A stretch of 64,000 nucleotides of DNA from Dehalococcoidia bacterium (lineage in GTDB: Bacteria > Chloroflexota > Dehalococcoidia > Lucifugimonadales > UBA3495): contig OZ242042.1 of NCBI GenBank assembly GCA_965204905.1, positions 1,282,778 through 1,346,777 of the forward strand, given 5' to 3'. The translations under genes and the position numbers were made by a program. The notes under the pieces are model-generated. The model saw only the letters and a program-made list of their open reading frames with translations, did not search any database and was not told the DNA's origin. This document shows, in pieces, positions 8,631 through 59,968 of the stretch. Numbering within the stretch: the first letter of the stretch is position 1; the number at the start of each line of letters is the position of its first letter.

Positions 8631-8668
8631 GGGATTCCGCCAAATTCGCCACCATCCCGCCCCTCGCC

Positions 8669-8713
8669 GTCATTCCCGCACCCCCACCGTCATTCCCGCG
8701 AAAGCGGGAATCC
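8669..8713. repeat. ATTCCCGC-GAAA-GCGGGAAT palindromic element plus an upstream half-copy
   Basis: Half-site GTCATTCCCGC 8669-8679. Full hairpin 8692-8711. Confidence 0.8.
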
Positions 8714-26337: not shown

Positions 26338-26458
26338 CCGTCTGAGCCGCGAATCCGTTCTGGTTCTCCCGCCTATCCAGCAATGCCGAAACTGTATTCA
26401 ACGCCACAGCACCGGAGCCGCCGACGGGGCGGCTCATACTTTGGCATCGCGTTTCTGG

Positions 26459-26478
26459 ATTCCCGCTTTCGCGGGAAT
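26459..26478. repeat. ATTCCCGC-TTTC-GCGGGAAT palindromic element
   Basis: Perfect 8-bp stem with GGATTCCC...GGGAATGACGG flanks as in the other copies. Lies between the small Cys protein and nuoJ. Confidence 0.8.
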
Positions 26479-26528
26479 GACGGAGAAGTGCGCGGGGATG
26501 ACGAGGGTAAGTTGAAGGACGATTAGCG

Positions 26529-36697: not shown

Positions 36698-39600
36698 TTG
36701 AACGCGCTCCGGTTCCGCATACCTGGCCCCCTGCGTCATTTGTGGGGGGCTAATTTTTTGCTGGTGGCGCTGCTGGCAGTTGCGTTGGCGTTGCGCCTTT
36801 ACGGGATCGACTGGGACCAGGGCCACGGGTTCCATCCCGATGAGCGGTCGTTCTATATGCGGGCCGGGGATATGCTGTGCCTGCTCACGGCCGGCCCGGA
36901 TACTGACGGCCCCTATTGCTCGGCGGCGCACCTCCGCTCTCTGCTGGCCGGCGATCAATTCCAGGGGATAGAGCCGGGGCTGCCCGATCTCCGAACTGCA
37001 CTGTCCGCCGAGCGCAGCCCGCTGAATCCCCGCTGGTTCCCCCTGGGCAGCGCGCTGATCTACGCTCTCGTCCTGCTGCGTACGTTGCTGGAACCGTTCG
37101 TAGATTGGGGCGTGATGGAGCTCAGATTCGCGGGGCGCACGCTGGCGGCGCTGGCCGACGTGGGTTCGGTGTGGCTGCTCTACCTCTTAGGCCGGCGCAT
37201 GTATGGGCCGTGGACGGGCATTTTGGCCGCTGCCTTCACCACCTTTGCGGTTATTCACATTCAGCACGCCCACTTTTACCGCCCTGAGCCATTTACGGTG
37301 TTGGCATCACTGGGTGCGTTGTGGGCTATGCTCCGTTTCATCGACTCAGGGCGGGCCCGCGACGCCGCGTTGTTGGGCGCGCTGGTGGGCCTGGCGATGG
37401 CGCCCAAGGTATCGGTCGCGCCGATTCTGGCGCCGCTTGTGCTCACGTTCCTGTGGGTGGCCAAGGACCGCGCCCAACGGGAGTGGACGCAGTTGAGGCC
37501 CGGCGACATCGCGCGTGTTGTCCCGGTGGCCGCGTTGGCTGGCGTGGCGGCCCTGGGGACGTTCTTCATCACCACGCCCTACGCTTTCCTGGACTTCGCC
37601 AATTTCATCGGCGACATACGCGAGCAGGCCGGCATGGCCGGCGAGGCCGGGCGGTTCCCGTTCACCTGGCAGTATGCTGACACGCCGGCTTTCCTGTACC
37701 AGATTCGTCAGACGGCGGTTTGGGGACTTGGTCTTCCGTTGGGCATAGCCGCGTGGGTGGCGGCTCCGGTGACTGCGTGGTTCGCCTGGCGCGGCGGCAT
37801 CACCCAACGCTCCGATCTGCTGCTTTTGGCATGGGCGGTGCCGGCTTTTGTGTTCCTGGAGTTGTTCGAGGTCAAGTTCCTGCGCTACGTGTTTCCGCTA
37901 ATGCCGTTCTACATCCTGATGGCGGCGCGGGTGCTGGTGGCTTTTGTGGCTTGGGCCAGAACTCGCCGGCTGCTGGTTGACGGGAGTCGTGAACCCCTGC
38001 CCGACGATGCGCCGTTCTCGGAGGAGTGGCACGCCACGCCGCCCACTGTGGGTGACGACCTGATCTTCGACGAACCGCTGTTTGGCGATGAACCCTTCGG
38101 CGACGCTCCCTTTTCGGAAGAGTGGCACGCTACTCCGCCGCTCGCCGGAGCATCGGTGTCTGCCGCGCCTATCGTGCCTGCTCCCCTTTCGCCGCCTGCT
38201 TACCGGCCTGGGCTCGCCGGGTTAATCGACCGTTGGGCCCTCCCAGCAGCGCTGACCACCCTGGTGCTTGTGCTCGCCGTGACCTTCCTCTACGCCGTGG
38301 CGTTTGTCGGTGTCTATGGCCGCACTCACACGGCCGTTGCTGCCTCGGATTGGATCAACGACAACGTTTCCCGCAATGCGTCCATCATCAACGGCGGTTC
38401 GTACTGGGATGAGCAGATACCCAACCTGCGCGGTTACGATCTCTGGACGTTCCCCGCCTATCACCCCGATCACGATCCCAACAAGATTCCCGAGTTGATT
38501 GAACGGCTGGCCGACTCCGACTATGTGATTTTCTACTCCAACCGCGCTTATGGTTCGGTGGCGCGTCTGCCCGATGAGTTTCCGCAGAGTTCCGCGTTCT
38601 ACCGGCTGTTGTTCTCGGGCGAACTGGGCTACCAACTGGAGCGGGCGTTTACGTCATACTCATCGTTGGCTGGCGTTCAGCTGCGGGACGATCCCTACGG
38701 GCGGGCCGGGCTGGCAACGCCACCCATCGCGTCGGGCGGCAACGACGGACAGCCGGACGGCATCGTAATCAACCTGGGGTACGCCGATGAGAACGTCATC
38801 GGGTACGACCATCCGCAAGTGTTGATATTTCGGAACGTGGAGCAGCTAGCGGAGCGGCAGATACGGAACAGTATCAACGCGGCAGCGGAGGCCGCTGCAT
38901 CAACCGACGCTCCCCTGATGCTGTCTCCGCCCGCGCTGGAGGCGCAGCGGTCGGGCGGGACCTGGTCGGAACTTTTCAACCGGGACGGTTGGGCCAATCG
39001 TGCGCCCTGGCTATCGTGGCTGTTGGTGATCGAGCTGATCTGCCTGGTTGCCTTCCCGTTCACCTGGTGGCTGATGCGACCGCTGCCCGACCGGGGCATC
39101 CTGTTCGCCCGGGTGTTGGGCTTGCTGCTGGTGGCCTGGGTGGCCTGGATGCTGGTGAACGTCGGCGTGTTGCGCTTTTCGGCGGGTACGGTGTGGGTGG
39201 CGATGTTCGTCGTTGCGATACCGTCCGCCGTTGTCCTCTGGCGACAATGGCGACCGATGGTTGATTGGCTGCGTGAAAAATGGCGGTTGGCACTCACTGC
39301 CGAGGCGTTATTTCTGCTGGCCTATCTCGCGTTCGTGCTGGTGCGCGCCGCCAACCCCGATCTGTGGCACCCGTGGCGCGGCGGCGAAAAGCCCATGGAG
39401 CTGGCTTACTTCACTGCGGTCGCGCGTTCTTCCGTGCTGCCGCCATACGATCCTTGGTTCAGTGGCGGTTATCTGAACTACTACTATTGGGGATATTTCA
39501 TCCTCTCGGTTCCCGTGCGGCTCACGGGCATCCCGCCGGCCACCGCGTTTAATGTTGCCGTGCCGCTGCTGTTTGCGCTGACGGCGACGGGGGTCGGTTC

Positions 39601-41485
39601 GCTGGTGTATAACCTGGTCGCCGCGGCACGCCGCCGTCAATCATCGGCTCCTTTCCCGCAATCGTTCTCCCCCGGCGGCGCTTGGATTCCGGCTTTCGCC
39701 GGAATGACGGTGAGGAGGATGGTCCGATGGTTTCCCGGCGGCGCAGCCGTCGCCGGACTTGCTGCTGCCCTCATGGCCACTGTGTCGGGCAATCTCGACG
39801 GCGTTGCGCAACTCGGCGAAATGGCGCAACGAAAATTGGACGGAATGGCCGCTCCACTGTCGAGTTTCGATTTCTGGCGCAGCAGCCGCGCAATCCCTGA
39901 AGTGCCCGAATTCGAGCCGTCCAGGCTCACGCCATGGCTCGAATCCGACAATTTAGTAGAAACGGCGTTTCACATCACAGAGTTCCCATTCTTCACCTTC
40001 CTCTTCGCCGACCTGCATGCCCACATGATGACCATGCCCTTTGCCGTACTTTCATTGGCGTTGGGATTCGCCTTGATTGCTGGTTTGAGCCGGGTGTCGT
40101 TGCGCGCCTTATGGCCCTGGGTTGTCGTTGTGATGCTTGCGCTGGCGGTGGGAAGTCTGTGGGCGATCAATTCGTGGGAGTACCCGGCCTACGCTCTGTT
40201 GATGCTCGGATGCGTCGTCGGCGCCGCGTGGATAATGCCGGGCCGGATCAGGATACGCCTGGCCGTCGCAGTCGCGTTGAGCCTGCTGACACTGGTGGTG
40301 AGCTATCTCGCTTTTCAACCGTTCCACGCCTCCAACGAGACCTTCGGAACCGGCATCGAACCCACCCGTTGGCGCACGCCCGTATACAACTACCTACTGA
40401 TCCACGCCTTGCCGCTGCTTGCGGCTGTGTGCCTGCTGTCCGCCACTTTGCCCCGCGCCATCGCTCCGGTCCTGGCGCGCGTGAAACGGCGCGAACCGCC
40501 GGTGGTTCTGGATCAATGGCTGTTGGTCGGCGCGGCCCTGGGTCTGATTCTGGTCTGCTACTTCTGGGCGGCAGGGTTTATCACCGTCGGATTCCTTGCC
40601 GTCGCGCTCACGCTAACGGCGTGGGCATTGCTCGCATCTCTGGCAGCCGAAGAATATCCCCAGCGTCGTGCCGACCTGATGGCGTTGGCGATGCTGGCAA
40701 TGGCCCTCGCTATCGGCATTGGCGTTGACCTGATTCGCGTCGAGGGCGACATCGCGCGGATGAACACGCTGTTCAAGTATTACCTGGTGGCGTGGCTGTT
40801 GTTCGCAGCGTCCGGCGCCTATGGGCTGTGGCGCGGCTGGACGTTCGCCAATAACGTGGGGGGGTTCGCGCGCAACACGCTCAGGTGGATGGCGGCTGGC
40901 GTCGTTCTGGCCATCTTTGCGGGAACTTTAGTCTATCCCGCGCTGGCTACTCCGGTTCGCATCGCCGACCGATTCAACCCCTTGCCGCCGACGCTGGACG
41001 GGGAAGTGTGGATGCCGGCCGCGGTGTATCATCCCCCGGACTGGTGCGCCGAACGGCCCCTGGAACCCATCGAACTGAAATGGGATTACGAGGCGATGCG
41101 TTGGCTTCAGGATAACGTCTCTGGGACGCCGGTCGTGCTGGAGGGACACGGCACTCAATACTGCTGGAACAGCCGCGTTGCGCAGTACACGGGTCTGCCC
41201 ACCGTTCTGGGCTGGCCCTGGCACCAGCAGCAGCAGCGCGGCGACGGCGAAATCGTACGCCGGCGCGCCCGGGACATAGAGACCATGTACAGCACGCCCA
41301 GCCACGACCGGGCGCTGGAGTTGCTGGAGGAATACGACGTTGAGTACATCGTCGTCGGGGCTTTGGAACGCGGCTACTACGGCGAGCGAGGAATCGCCAA
41401 GTTCGATGCCATGGTCGAAAAAGGTTCGTTGACCCTGGCCTACGGCAACGATGGCACGCGGGTCTATCAGGTTGCGGGCCGTTGA
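36698..41485 (+). CDS. giant polytopic membrane protein: GT-C/PMT-like N-terminal domain + DUF2298 (Chlor_Arch_YYY) domain
   Basis: 1595-aa ORF. GIDWDQGHGFHPDERSFYM near the N-terminus, dozens of TM segments, the signature GGYLNYYYWGYF (about 39466-39500), and a C-terminal soluble domain (LEEYDVEYIVVG). Confidence 0.85.
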   Translation: MNALRFRIPGPLRHLWGANFLLVALLAVALALRLYGIDWDQGHGFHPDERSFYMRAGDMLCLLTAGPDTDGPYCSAAHLRSLLAGDQFQGIEPGLPDLRTALSAERSPLNPRWFPLGSALIYALVLLRTLLEPFVDWGVMELRFAGRTLAALADVGSVWLLYLLGRRMYGPWTGILAAAFTTFAVIHIQHAHFYRPEPFTVLASLGALWAMLRFIDSGRARDAALLGALVGLAMAPKVSVAPILAPLVLTFLWVAKDRAQREWTQLRPGDIARVVPVAALAGVAALGTFFITTPYAFLDFANFIGDIREQAGMAGEAGRFPFTWQYADTPAFLYQIRQTAVWGLGLPLGIAAWVAAPVTAWFAWRGGITQRSDLLLLAWAVPAFVFLELFEVKFLRYVFPLMPFYILMAARVLVAFVAWARTRRLLVDGSREPLPDDAPFSEEWHATPPTVGDDLIFDEPLFGDEPFGDAPFSEEWHATPPLAGASVSAAPIVPAPLSPPAYRPGLAGLIDRWALPAALTTLVLVLAVTFLYAVAFVGVYGRTHTAVAASDWINDNVSRNASIINGGSYWDEQIPNLRGYDLWTFPAYHPDHDPNKIPELIERLADSDYVIFYSNRAYGSVARLPDEFPQSSAFYRLLFSGELGYQLERAFTSYSSLAGVQLRDDPYGRAGLATPPIASGGNDGQPDGIVINLGYADENVIGYDHPQVLIFRNVEQLAERQIRNSINAAAEAAASTDAPLMLSPPALEAQRSGGTWSELFNRDGWANRAPWLSWLLVIELICLVAFPFTWWLMRPLPDRGILFARVLGLLLVAWVAWMLVNVGVLRFSAGTVWVAMFVVAIPSAVVLWRQWRPMVDWLREKWRLALTAEALFLLAYLAFVLVRAANPDLWHPWRGGEKPMELAYFTAVARSSVLPPYDPWFSGGYLNYYYWGYFILSVPVRLTGIPPATAFNVAVPLLFALTATGVGSLVYNLVAAARRRQSSAPFPQSFSPGGAWIPAFAGMTVRRMVRWFPGGAAVAGLAAALMATVSGNLDGVAQLGEMAQRKLDGMAAPLSSFDFWRSSRAIPEVPEFEPSRLTPWLESDNLVETAFHITEFPFFTFLFADLHAHMMTMPFAVLSLALGFALIAGLSRVSLRALWPWVVVVMLALAVGSLWAINSWEYPAYALLMLGCVVGAAWIMPGRIRIRLAVAVALSLLTLVVSYLAFQPFHASNETFGTGIEPTRWRTPVYNYLLIHALPLLAAVCLLSATLPRAIAPVLARVKRREPPVVLDQWLLVGAALGLILVCYFWAAGFITVGFLAVALTLTAWALLASLAAEEYPQRRADLMALAMLAMALAIGIGVDLIRVEGDIARMNTLFKYYLVAWLLFAASGAYGLWRGWTFANNVGGFARNTLRWMAAGVVLAIFAGTLVYPALATPVRIADRFNPLPPTLDGEVWMPAAVYHPPDWCAERPLEPIELKWDYEAMRWLQDNVSGTPVVLEGHGTQYCWNSRVAQYTGLPTVLGWPWHQQQQRGDGEIVRRRARDIETMYSTPSHDRALELLEEYDVEYIVVGALERGYYGERGIAKFDAMVEKGSLTLAYGNDGTRVYQVAGR
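39686..39705. repeat. ATTCCGGC-TTTC-GCCGGAAT palindromic element lying in frame inside the DUF2298 CDS
   Basis: CTTGGATTCCGGCTTTCGCCGGAATGACGGTGAGG matches the intergenic copies at 26459 and 41547, with compensatory C/G stem changes. It is translated as AWIPAFAGMTVR. Confidence 0.75.
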
Positions 41486-41497
41486 CTAGCAGTAGTT

Positions 41498-41517
41498 ATT
41501 CCGACGAAAGCCGGAAT
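41498..41517. repeat. ATTCCGAC-GAAA-GCCGGAAT palindromic element
   Basis: First of two tandem copies just after the DUF2298 stop. Confidence 0.7.
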
Positions 41518-41546
41518 GCAGCGTTCATGTTGCGATGGCGTTCTGG

Positions 41547-41566
41547 ATTCCCGCGAAAGCGGGAAT
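41547..41566. repeat. ATTCCCGC-GAAA-GCGGGAAT palindromic element
   Basis: Perfect 8-bp stem, GNRA-type loop, GGATTCCC...GGGAATGACGG flanks. Confidence 0.8.
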
Positions 41567-41600
41567 GACGGGGTGGGTTAGGGAATGGCAGGATGAGTTT

Positions 41601-59364: not shown

Positions 59365-59931
59365 AGAACGGAAAAAGTGGCCGAGCACCTCCCGTTGACT
59401 ACAGCCTGGGGGCATATCGTCGGGACTGGCTCAGGCCAGGCGCTCCCACGGCGCCCGCGGGACATCGCTTACCGTTGCTGCCGTCAAGCCCTGGCGGAGT
59501 TCACGAGCCTGCGCCGCGTGGGACCCGGCCGTCAACGCCACTCCCTGGGAAATTGGCCCTTGCGCCTTGCCGAGGGGAGGAATTCCACCCCGCTGTGGCG
59601 GGTTGCGGGTATAGGGCACCGCCAGCTCCCCGTGTAGCACGACCACTGCAAACATGGTATGCGGGCATGGGCTGGGTGTCAAACGCCGGCGGCGCCGGGC
59701 GATTGTTCAGAGTTGGGGTACTCCGGTCACGGGGCAGACTGTTCTTGTGCGGAATGATGATTTGGGTCAGCGGGTGGTTTTGGGGTTCCTCCGATTTGAG
59801 CGATTGGGTTTTGGGATTTTTCGGTGTCAGGTTGGTGGTTCGGGTCGAGTGTCGGAGCACGGCCAACACTATTTTTTTGCAGAGTTTGCGTCCTAGATTT
59901 CCACGTGCTGGCCGTTGCCCCGCTCCGCCGG

Positions 59932-59952
59932 ATTCCGGATCACGTCCGGAAT
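59932..59952. repeat. ATTCCGGA-loop-TCCGGAAT palindromic element (G-subfamily)
   Basis: GGATTCCGGATCACGTCCGGAATGACGG, directly adjacent to the 30-nt module at 59969-59998. Confidence 0.7.
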
Positions 59953-59968
59953 GACGGTTTGAGGCGTT

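Follow-up and report, generated by a model that had tools for sequence, protein, structure and literature searches.

An in-frame hairpin repeat of the CGTC-1 type in a disordered loop of a DUF2298 membrane protein gene from a Dehalococcoidia bacterium

We analysed a 64,000-nucleotide stretch of the genome of a Dehalococcoidia bacterium (the window; C1:1282778-1346777 of a 4.23-Mb assembly with 62% G+C), in which a short palindrome lies within the coding sequence of a very large DUF2298 membrane protein. We conclude, with a probability of roughly 0.85, that the palindrome is a repetitive extragenic palindrome (REP) of the CGTC-1 class that was inserted into the coding sequence, probably as part of a dimer, and is tolerated in a disordered loop. 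Other bacteria are already known to carry in-frame insertions of this family, so the insertion itself is not new. Positions below are those of the window unless a contig is named, and congeneric genomes carry G numbers where they must be told apart. Three features are central.

36698-41485, plus strand: the host gene, an intact open reading frame (ORF) for a 1595-residue membrane protein, with a PMT_2 (GT-C glycosyltransferase-like) N-terminal part and a DUF2298 / Chlor_Arch_YYY C-terminal part.
39626-39733, plus strand: the hypervariable, Arg-rich, disordered loop that holds the repeat, residues ~977-1012, between two membrane helices.
39682-39710, plus strand: the putative CGTC-1 REP copy, CCGGC/GCCGG subtype, 29 nt, composed of the tail TTGG, ATTCCGGC, TTTC, GCCGGAAT and the head GACG(G).

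The 25-nt core at 39684-39708 (GGATTCCGGCTTTCGCCGGAATGAC) was found to be an exact copy of the repeat family. The core is shared without change by 22 further copies in the genome and belongs to the second commonest subtype, and the in-gene copy departs from the family consensus at one position only, with TTGG in place of CTGG (T for C, two bases ahead of the core). The 8-bp stem, formed by ATTCCGGC (39686-39693) and GCCGGAAT (39698-39705), closes a TTTC loop (39694-39697) and has TTGG and GACGG as flanks. This hairpin is present in the minimum-free-energy fold of 39660-39735; the stability of the whole 76-nt region did not exceed that of shuffled sequence (z = -0.6), with no sign of a larger structure. 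An Rfam scan of 39400-40000 at a permissive threshold gave chance-level matches only (E > 2), so the element is not a described RNA family.

The first-pass annotation of this DNA had proposed that the palindrome shares its hairpin architecture with intergenic copies nearby. This was borne out by a strict pattern, GGATTCCSGC-N(2-12)-GCSGGAATGAC, which matched at four sites in the window (8689 on the minus strand; 26457, 39684 and 41545 on the plus strand) and at none in 100 shuffles. A slightly looser pattern identified 142 copies genome-wide, and a reversed control pattern had no match in any of the 41 genomes searched. The stems differ by paired changes, giving CCCGC/GCGGG (>56 copies), CCGGC/GCCGG (23 copies) and CCTGC/GCAGG (9 copies), and all subtypes retain ATTCC...GGAAT. 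The paired C-to-G and G-to-C changes noticed earlier in the in-gene stem are those of the 23-copy compensatory subtype. The loop is mainly TTTC or its inverse GAAA, with a minority subtype carrying 6 nt. The flanks CT..GG are conserved in 76-92% of the 142 copies: the two positions before the core (5' consensus CTGG) at 87% and 92%, and the next two after it, in the GACGG that forms the 3' flank of most copies, at 89% G and 76% G.

Placement relative to genes, determined with a crude in-house codon-usage gene caller, assigned 129 of the 142 copies to intergenic DNA, 6 across gene ends and 7 within called genes. The intergenic copies were distributed between same-direction (67%), divergent (19%) and convergent (14%) genes, near the length-weighted intergenic baseline of 57%, 28% and 16%. 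Four of the seven in-gene copies were robustly in frame in real genes (~3% of all copies), each in a linker or loop.

ORF 36698-41485, disordered loop: WIPAFAGMT.
Major facilitator superfamily (MFS) transporter, central loop: RHSGESRNP.
Linker ahead of an Eco57I-like methylase domain (ORF C1:182418-185468): PSFPRKRES.
Linker ahead of the RecG wedge domain (ORF C1:4066869-4069544): VIPTQAGIQ.

Other apparent in-gene copies, at C1:289942, 2783054, 2790942, 2974412, 3085484, 3321224 and 3377041, were rejected as lying in antisense shadow ORFs typical of high-GC DNA, and the one at C1:751826 is probably upstream of the true start.

The family could be placed by comparison with a published class. 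In CGTC-1 REPs the head is CGTC, the 8-bp stem opens with AT, the loop spans 4 nt and the tail reads CCA (Di Nocera, De Gregorio & Rocco 2013, BMC Genomics 14:522; PMC3733652); TGTC and CCTC occur as head variants, and the class corresponds to Neisseria dRS3 and to the Rickettsia palindromic element RPE-6 of R. conorii (PMC3733652). Inverted dimers are frequent among CGTC elements, their spacers of 20-100 nt sometimes agreeing in length but not in sequence, and the elements 'apparently lack a dedicated transposase' (PMC3733652). The dRS3 pattern is ATTCCC-N8-GGGAAT, and the filamentous prophage Nf1 of Neisseria integrates at this repeat, where its integrase acts (PMC3898611). The in-gene copy has the same anatomy. 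On the plus strand, GCCGGAAT GACG G at 39698-39710 gives CGTC on the other strand, and the stem, the 4-nt loop and the tail all agree (TTGG reads CCAA, as the family CTGG reads CCAG). Dispersal also agrees, the copies being numerous, mainly intergenic and in part arranged as inverted dimers.

The peptides tell the same story. Single CGTC-1 copies in frame encode WMPAFAGMT, WIPAFTGMT, WIPAFVRMT, SFPRKRES, DSRFRGND, VIPAKAGI and CHSRESGNP, and in-gene dimers encode SF.RK.ES-spacer-LDSRFRGND, for example SFPRKRES...LDSRFRGND (PMC3733652, Additional file 3). Closely matching in-gene peptides are recorded for Rickettsia, Sphingomonas and Coxiella, those of R. conorii including WIPAFTGMT, SFPRKRES, LDSRFRGND and VIPAKAGI (PMC3733652). 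We found that the peptides here fall into the same five frames, and that the dimer arrangement matches that of the R. conorii in-gene dimers (SF.RK.ES ... LDSRFRGND). Judged by this anatomy and by its identity to the published consensus features and peptides, the in-gene feature is classed as a CGTC-1 REP. The parallel with Rickettsia palindromic elements drawn in the first-pass annotation is thus stronger than an analogy: because the element has the CGTC-1 features and RPE-6 is itself classed as CGTC-1, with closely matching peptides, the two are related as members of one family.

An exact 28-nt core, CTGGATTCCCGC-N4-GCGGGAATGACG, was also found in public genomes. Among the matches listed, the hosts come from many phyla and include Neisseria (N. 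lactamica, N. dentiae), Gallionella, Sphingomonas, Planctomycetes, Nitrospirae, Dehalococcoidia and a Peribacteria metagenome-assembled genome. The 2013 survey reported CGTC repeats from Proteobacteria, Chlorobi, Bacteroidetes, Spirochaetes and Thermotogae, Chloroflexi not being among them (PMC3733652). The class is therefore extended to a Dehalococcoidia-like lineage, and the exact-core matches, among those listed, span many more phyla than the five of that survey. Over syntenic genes, the nearest public relatives (70-78% nucleotide identity) carry the label Dehalococcoidia (Chloroflexota).

In the host gene the element is in frame, and the 1595-residue ORF stays open across the hairpin (translation ...FSPGGAWIPAFAGMTVRRMVRW...), as had been noted at the outset. 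The 29-nt copy is read as (A)WIPAFAGMT(V), encoding residues 995-1004. Five of the hairpin's six frames are stop-free and the sixth contains a TGA. All five open frames are represented in this genus: WIPAFAGMT in this gene, LDSRFRGND in G021, SFPRKRES in G017 or SFPRRRES in G003, RHSGESRNP in the MFS transporter and VIPTQAGIQ in RecG. In relatives the hairpin is translated in different frames and also in the opposite orientation, so WIPAFAGMT is best seen as a by-product of the DNA element and not as a selected protein motif. An earlier estimate of 25-35 inserted residues did not hold for the recognisable insert, which comprises ~10 residues (29 nt); the figure would rise to at most ~25 if a decayed upstream partner, described below, were counted.

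We then considered the protein context. Pfam placed PF13231 at residues 143-261 and PF10060 at residues 811-1369, and TIGR03662 covered residues 772-1592 with 526 bits. Hydropathy analysis located the loop (977-1010) between transmembrane-like segments at 945-976 and 1011-1030. Since the loop has K+R = 6 and D+E = 0, it is probably cytoplasmic by the positive-inside rule. An AlphaFold model of residues 772-1595, built from 33 orthologues, had a mean predicted local distance difference test score (pLDDT) of 86 and a predicted template modelling score (pTM) of 0.89. Its sole stretch with pLDDT < 50, model positions 210-241 (protein residues 981-1012), includes the repeat-encoded residues 995-1004, and the parts on either side of the insert are modelled with confidence. 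The insert is thus predicted to fall in a loop between two membrane helices, in line with what the first-pass annotation had supposed. The nearest solved folds to the modelled DUF2298 domain (39011-41482) were the GT-C glycosyltransferases DPY19, AglB, AftA and ArnT, and a PDB sequence search with the domain returned no match. Going by the model and the N-terminal PMT_2 part, the 1595-residue protein appears to combine two GT-C-type modules in a single chain. Apart from this gene, the genome carries a shorter DUF2298 paralogue at C1:96605-99109 (~830 residues, 30-33% identical) with one in-frame TAG, which may be a pseudogene or reflect a sequencing error.

The host gene was found in all 24 congeners and in 14 genomes from other families of the order, and 23 of the congeners have full-length, stop-free orthologues at 65-85% identity. 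Alignment of these orthologues confirmed that the element sits in a hypervariable loop, which is unalignable, variable in both length and sequence, and short in the other families. The congeners carry between 0 and 372 copies of the repeat. An insertion predicts that orthologues from repeat-free genomes lack the peptide, and the two zero-copy congeners, G002 and G011, show no trace of it; the segment is likewise absent from all 14 orthologues of the other families. G002, which has the shortest loop, is sister to the pair formed by this species and G021.

Four of the 24 congeners also have a REP copy in this loop, differing in frame or orientation. G021 (85% protein identity to the window ORF) has a perfect forward copy read as LDSRFRGND and a reverse copy 26 nt upstream, which together form a canonical 76-nt dimer; its forward copy and the one here are equally far from the downstream anchor, to within 1 nt, and are read in different frames. 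G003 (74%) has a perfect reverse copy read as SFPRRRES, G017 (69%) a perfect reverse copy read as SFPRKRES, and G001 (69%) a reverse copy split by an inner hairpin. All five carrier species belong to one nine-species clade of the genus, in which G002, G019, G018 and G023 have a loop without the hairpin. The RecG linker holds REP copies in two species, in different frames, and the MFS insertion was found in this genome alone. The simplest reading of these patterns is repeated colonisation of permissive linkers. The G021 assembly breaks inside its RecG linker (residues 146-171; C8 start, C85 end), a break probably caused by the repeats there.

Dimers bear on how the in-gene copy arrived. Two features of the window are relevant.

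39636-39663, minus strand: a possible partner hairpin in decay (GTCAATCATCGGCTCCTTTCCCGCAATC), at the place expected for the reverse member of a canonical 76-nt dimer.
41495-41569, just past the stop codon of the gene: an intergenic REP dimer with a reverse copy at 41495-41519 (3 mismatches), a forward copy at 41545-41569 and a 25-nt spacer, absent at the syntenic G021 site.

Genome-wide, 16 REP pairs were arranged reverse-then-forward and none in the opposite arrangement. Their spacers measured 25-27 or 43-52 nt and were unrelated in sequence, and the two partners usually differed in stem. The lack of sequence conservation in the spacers speaks against a doublet that is copied as one unit; the fixed spacing suggests that a second hairpin may be placed relative to the first. 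Local alignment of 39636-39663 to the reverse consensus scored 21.5 (P = 0.026 against 3000 random genome windows), which is suggestive of a decayed reverse partner of the in-gene copy. The corresponding place in G021, the sister species, holds a more clearly recognisable reverse copy (3 mismatches), 26 nt ahead of the forward copy.

We also searched for an enzyme that might mobilise the family. No match to the REP-associated tyrosine transposase (RAYT) / Y1 transposase family PF01797 was found in this genome, and control genomes did give matches; this absence is consistent with the published lack of a dedicated transposase for CGTC REPs. The Nf1 prophage integrase is IS110/Piv-like, which made IS110-family insertion sequences a candidate. 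Four copies of this family (PF01548) were identified: three 1.35-kb copies that are near-identical (99.3%), at C1:858368, C1:2856381 and C2:26132, the last on a small contig, and a divergent one at C1:408016. The candidate was rejected, as there is no REP within 2.5 kb of any of the four. A related insertion sequence, of the kind expected for a miniature inverted-repeat transposable element, was not found in the genome. Comparison of the copies at 26457 and 41545 with G021 showed sites too diverged for insertion boundaries or target duplications to be read.

Taken together, the following course of events would account for the data. A CGTC-1 REP would have landed, probably as part of a two-hairpin dimer, in a gene for a two-module GT-C-like membrane protein. 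The gene would have survived because the insert preserved the frame, as five of the six frames of the element allow, and because it fell in a disordered, fast-evolving and probably cytoplasmic loop in which some 10 extra residues (WIPAFAGMT) would be harmless. The dimer would have arrived in the common ancestor of this species and G021 and have been neutral since, and the family would spread through an enzyme acting in trans.

Several observations weigh against parts of this account, above all against neutrality since a shared ancestor. Four-fold sites of the host gene are 35% different between this species and G021, and only one compensatory pair differs in the 25-nt hairpin, which has P ~0.002 if the copies are orthologous and neutral. 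In a 50-kb syntenic block, four intergenic window copies have no G021 counterpart and the loop copy has one. Five of the nine clade species carry a copy in a loop of ~100 nt, compared with ~0.4 expected over all 25 genomes, an expectation that takes the loop to be as permissive as average intergenic DNA (a crude 648-kb estimate). In addition, the loop is too variable to define a clean empty site or target duplication. Other pairs of loop copies behave similarly: on the same assumptions, P is ~4e-4 for G017 versus G001 and ~4e-8 for G003 versus G017 (L005, L008), which differ at 1 of 25 positions. An intergenic dimer that is orthologous in G004 and G020 shows 3/25 and 5/25 differences, against 21% at four-fold sites, and so appears to have decayed at about the neutral rate; for this reason we see no sign of general homogenisation in these sequences. 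Because the loop cores diverge less than neutral sites and the intergenic copies are unshared, the loop copies would be either independent young insertions or copies kept intact. That the loop hairpins are not neutral passengers, with machinery placing new hairpins ~26 nt from an existing one so that a permissive loop is colonised repeatedly, or with selection or gene conversion keeping the hairpin as the codons drift and change frame, therefore deserves mention, although we consider it unlikely. If true, it would offer a handle on how transposase-less CGTC REPs are made and maintained.

The loop could be a preferred landing site, with independent and recent copies in the five species and an older partner hairpin possibly directing a new one to the ~26-nt dimer spacing. 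The hairpin cores are perfect in four species against a neutral-site divergence of 35-60%, the copies in this loop take both orientations and are read in three frames, and intergenic copies show rapid turnover between the two most closely related species. Dimers that are always reverse-then-forward, with set spacing and unrelated spacers, fit a second hairpin placed at a set distance, and the RecG linker, occupied in two species in different frames, points the same way. However, once the choice of loop is accounted for the excess is modest: the expectation for the other 24 genomes is ~0.37 further events, so that two further events have P ~0.05 and three P ~0.007, and the permissive space is probably smaller than 648 kb, which makes the test weaker still. 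Confinement of the carriers to one clade would also fit one or two old insertions, and no target motif or duplication was identified. We regard a preferred site as a tentative possibility. An old orthologous insertion kept by selection on the nucleic acid (for mRNA stability, processing or pausing between helices, or as a DNA site for a host factor) or by gene conversion seems to us improbable. It would explain why the forward copy of G021 agrees with the copy here in orientation and, relative to the downstream anchor, in position to within 1 nt, with a downstream flank ~70% identical, why core differences from G021 are limited to the compensatory pair, and why the family core is conserved across phyla. 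As the peptide frame differs between the two species, any such constraint is not on the protein. Yet the close relatives G002, G019, G018 and G023 do well without the hairpin, the dimer shared by G004 and G020 decays near the neutral rate, the upstream partner hairpin is decaying and the 76-nt region folds no better than shuffled sequence. A chance or convergent palindrome in a GC-rich loop would draw only on the general abundance of such palindromes at 62% G+C, and it is refuted by the identity of the core to 22 copies and by the absence of matches in the shuffled and reversed-pattern controls. A pseudogene or assembly artefact is refuted by an ORF that is intact here and full length in 23 congeners and by a model confident on both sides. 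A tolerated CGTC-1 insertion thus remains the reading that we favour.

Other members of the family in the window are as follows.

8689-8713, minus strand: an intergenic copy followed by tandem half-sites gcgggaatgacgg, within a stretch of ~900 nt that G021 lacks.
26457-26481, plus strand: an intergenic copy of the CCCGC subtype followed by a degenerate half-site, absent at the syntenic G021 site.
59930-59955, plus strand: a variant copy whose loop has 6 nt and whose stem is CCGGA/TCCGG (GGATTCCGGATCACGTCCGGAATGAC).

Many REP copies are trailed by 2-5 degenerate direct repeats of the 3' arm and head (gcgggaatgacgg) with a period of ~17 nt; such half-site arrays occur at 8640-8690 and 26482-26510 and at C1:1277500, 2528432 and 3682734, among other sites. 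Copies with a 4-nt loop are strand-skewed in this genome (75 forward, 43 reverse) and near equal in most congeners. Another palindrome, GGGGCGGGTTTCAAACCCGCCCC, directly abuts REP copies at at least six sites (C1:144515, 1149802, 3515306, 3531576, 3593247 and 3887288), which suggests composite or mosaic repeat units. A composite REP with a second hairpin (gtcacccc...gggg) between the loop and the 3' arm was seen in the coding loop of G001 (L009) and in intergenic DNA at C1:197890-197995. A second repeat family, read in frame as ARPEPVEG / PEPVEGQ, was seen in the RecG linker of this genome and in those of G018 and G019 (L167, L170, L183), and it also adjoins the REP of the methylase-like ORF. 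In G018, the MFS loop has the sequence SFDELRMSG, apparently one more peptide of repeat origin.

For annotation, the practical consequence is that WIPAFAGMT, LDSRFRGND, SFPRKRES, RHSGESRNP and VIPAKAGIQ are five open frames of one DNA hairpin and not protein motifs, and such peptides can safely be treated as loop insertions. With copy numbers from 0 to 372 among the 24 congeners and the same loop occupied in five species, the genus offers a well-sampled natural series for studying the origin, pairing and persistence of transposase-less repeats.

Compared with known systems, the family resembles RAYT-mobilised REP doublets (REPINs) in its inverted doublets of short hairpins, fixed spacing, high copy number and persistence in lineages. 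It differs in having CGTC in place of a GTAG tag, in the Y1 transposase not being found here and in spacers that are unconserved. In relation to Neisseria dRS3, the main subtype here (ATTCCCGC-N4-GCGGGAAT; >56 copies) and the other three window copies fit ATTCCC-N8-GGGAAT, whereas the in-gene copy, with the compensatory ATTCCG-N8-CGGAAT, falls outside the strict pattern. In Neisseria the element forms large intergenic arrays with RS repeats (Neisseria intergenic mosaic elements, NIMEs) and serves as a prophage or insertion sequence target; here it occurs as singletons or dimers, sometimes with short half-site arrays, and no link of that kind was seen, the IS110-family copies not lying beside REPs. 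Rickettsia palindromic elements, among them RPE-6, RPE-4 and RPE-1, likewise place a palindrome in frame in an intact, conserved gene, and RPE-6 is classed as CGTC-1. R. conorii has the most in-gene CGTC copies of the 2013 survey, compared with ~3% (4 of 142) robustly in frame here. Classic RPE-1 is longer (about 100-150 bp) and unrelated in sequence to the RPE-6-type element found here. The closest correspondence is with the CGTC-1 class as surveyed. The host lineage (here Dehalococcoidia) differs, the DUF2298 host gene is not on the survey's list, and one loop repeatedly occupied across congeners is not described there; shared with it are the anatomy, the copy number, the inverted dimers, the occasional in-frame copies (mostly in linkers), the peptides and the lack of a dedicated transposase.

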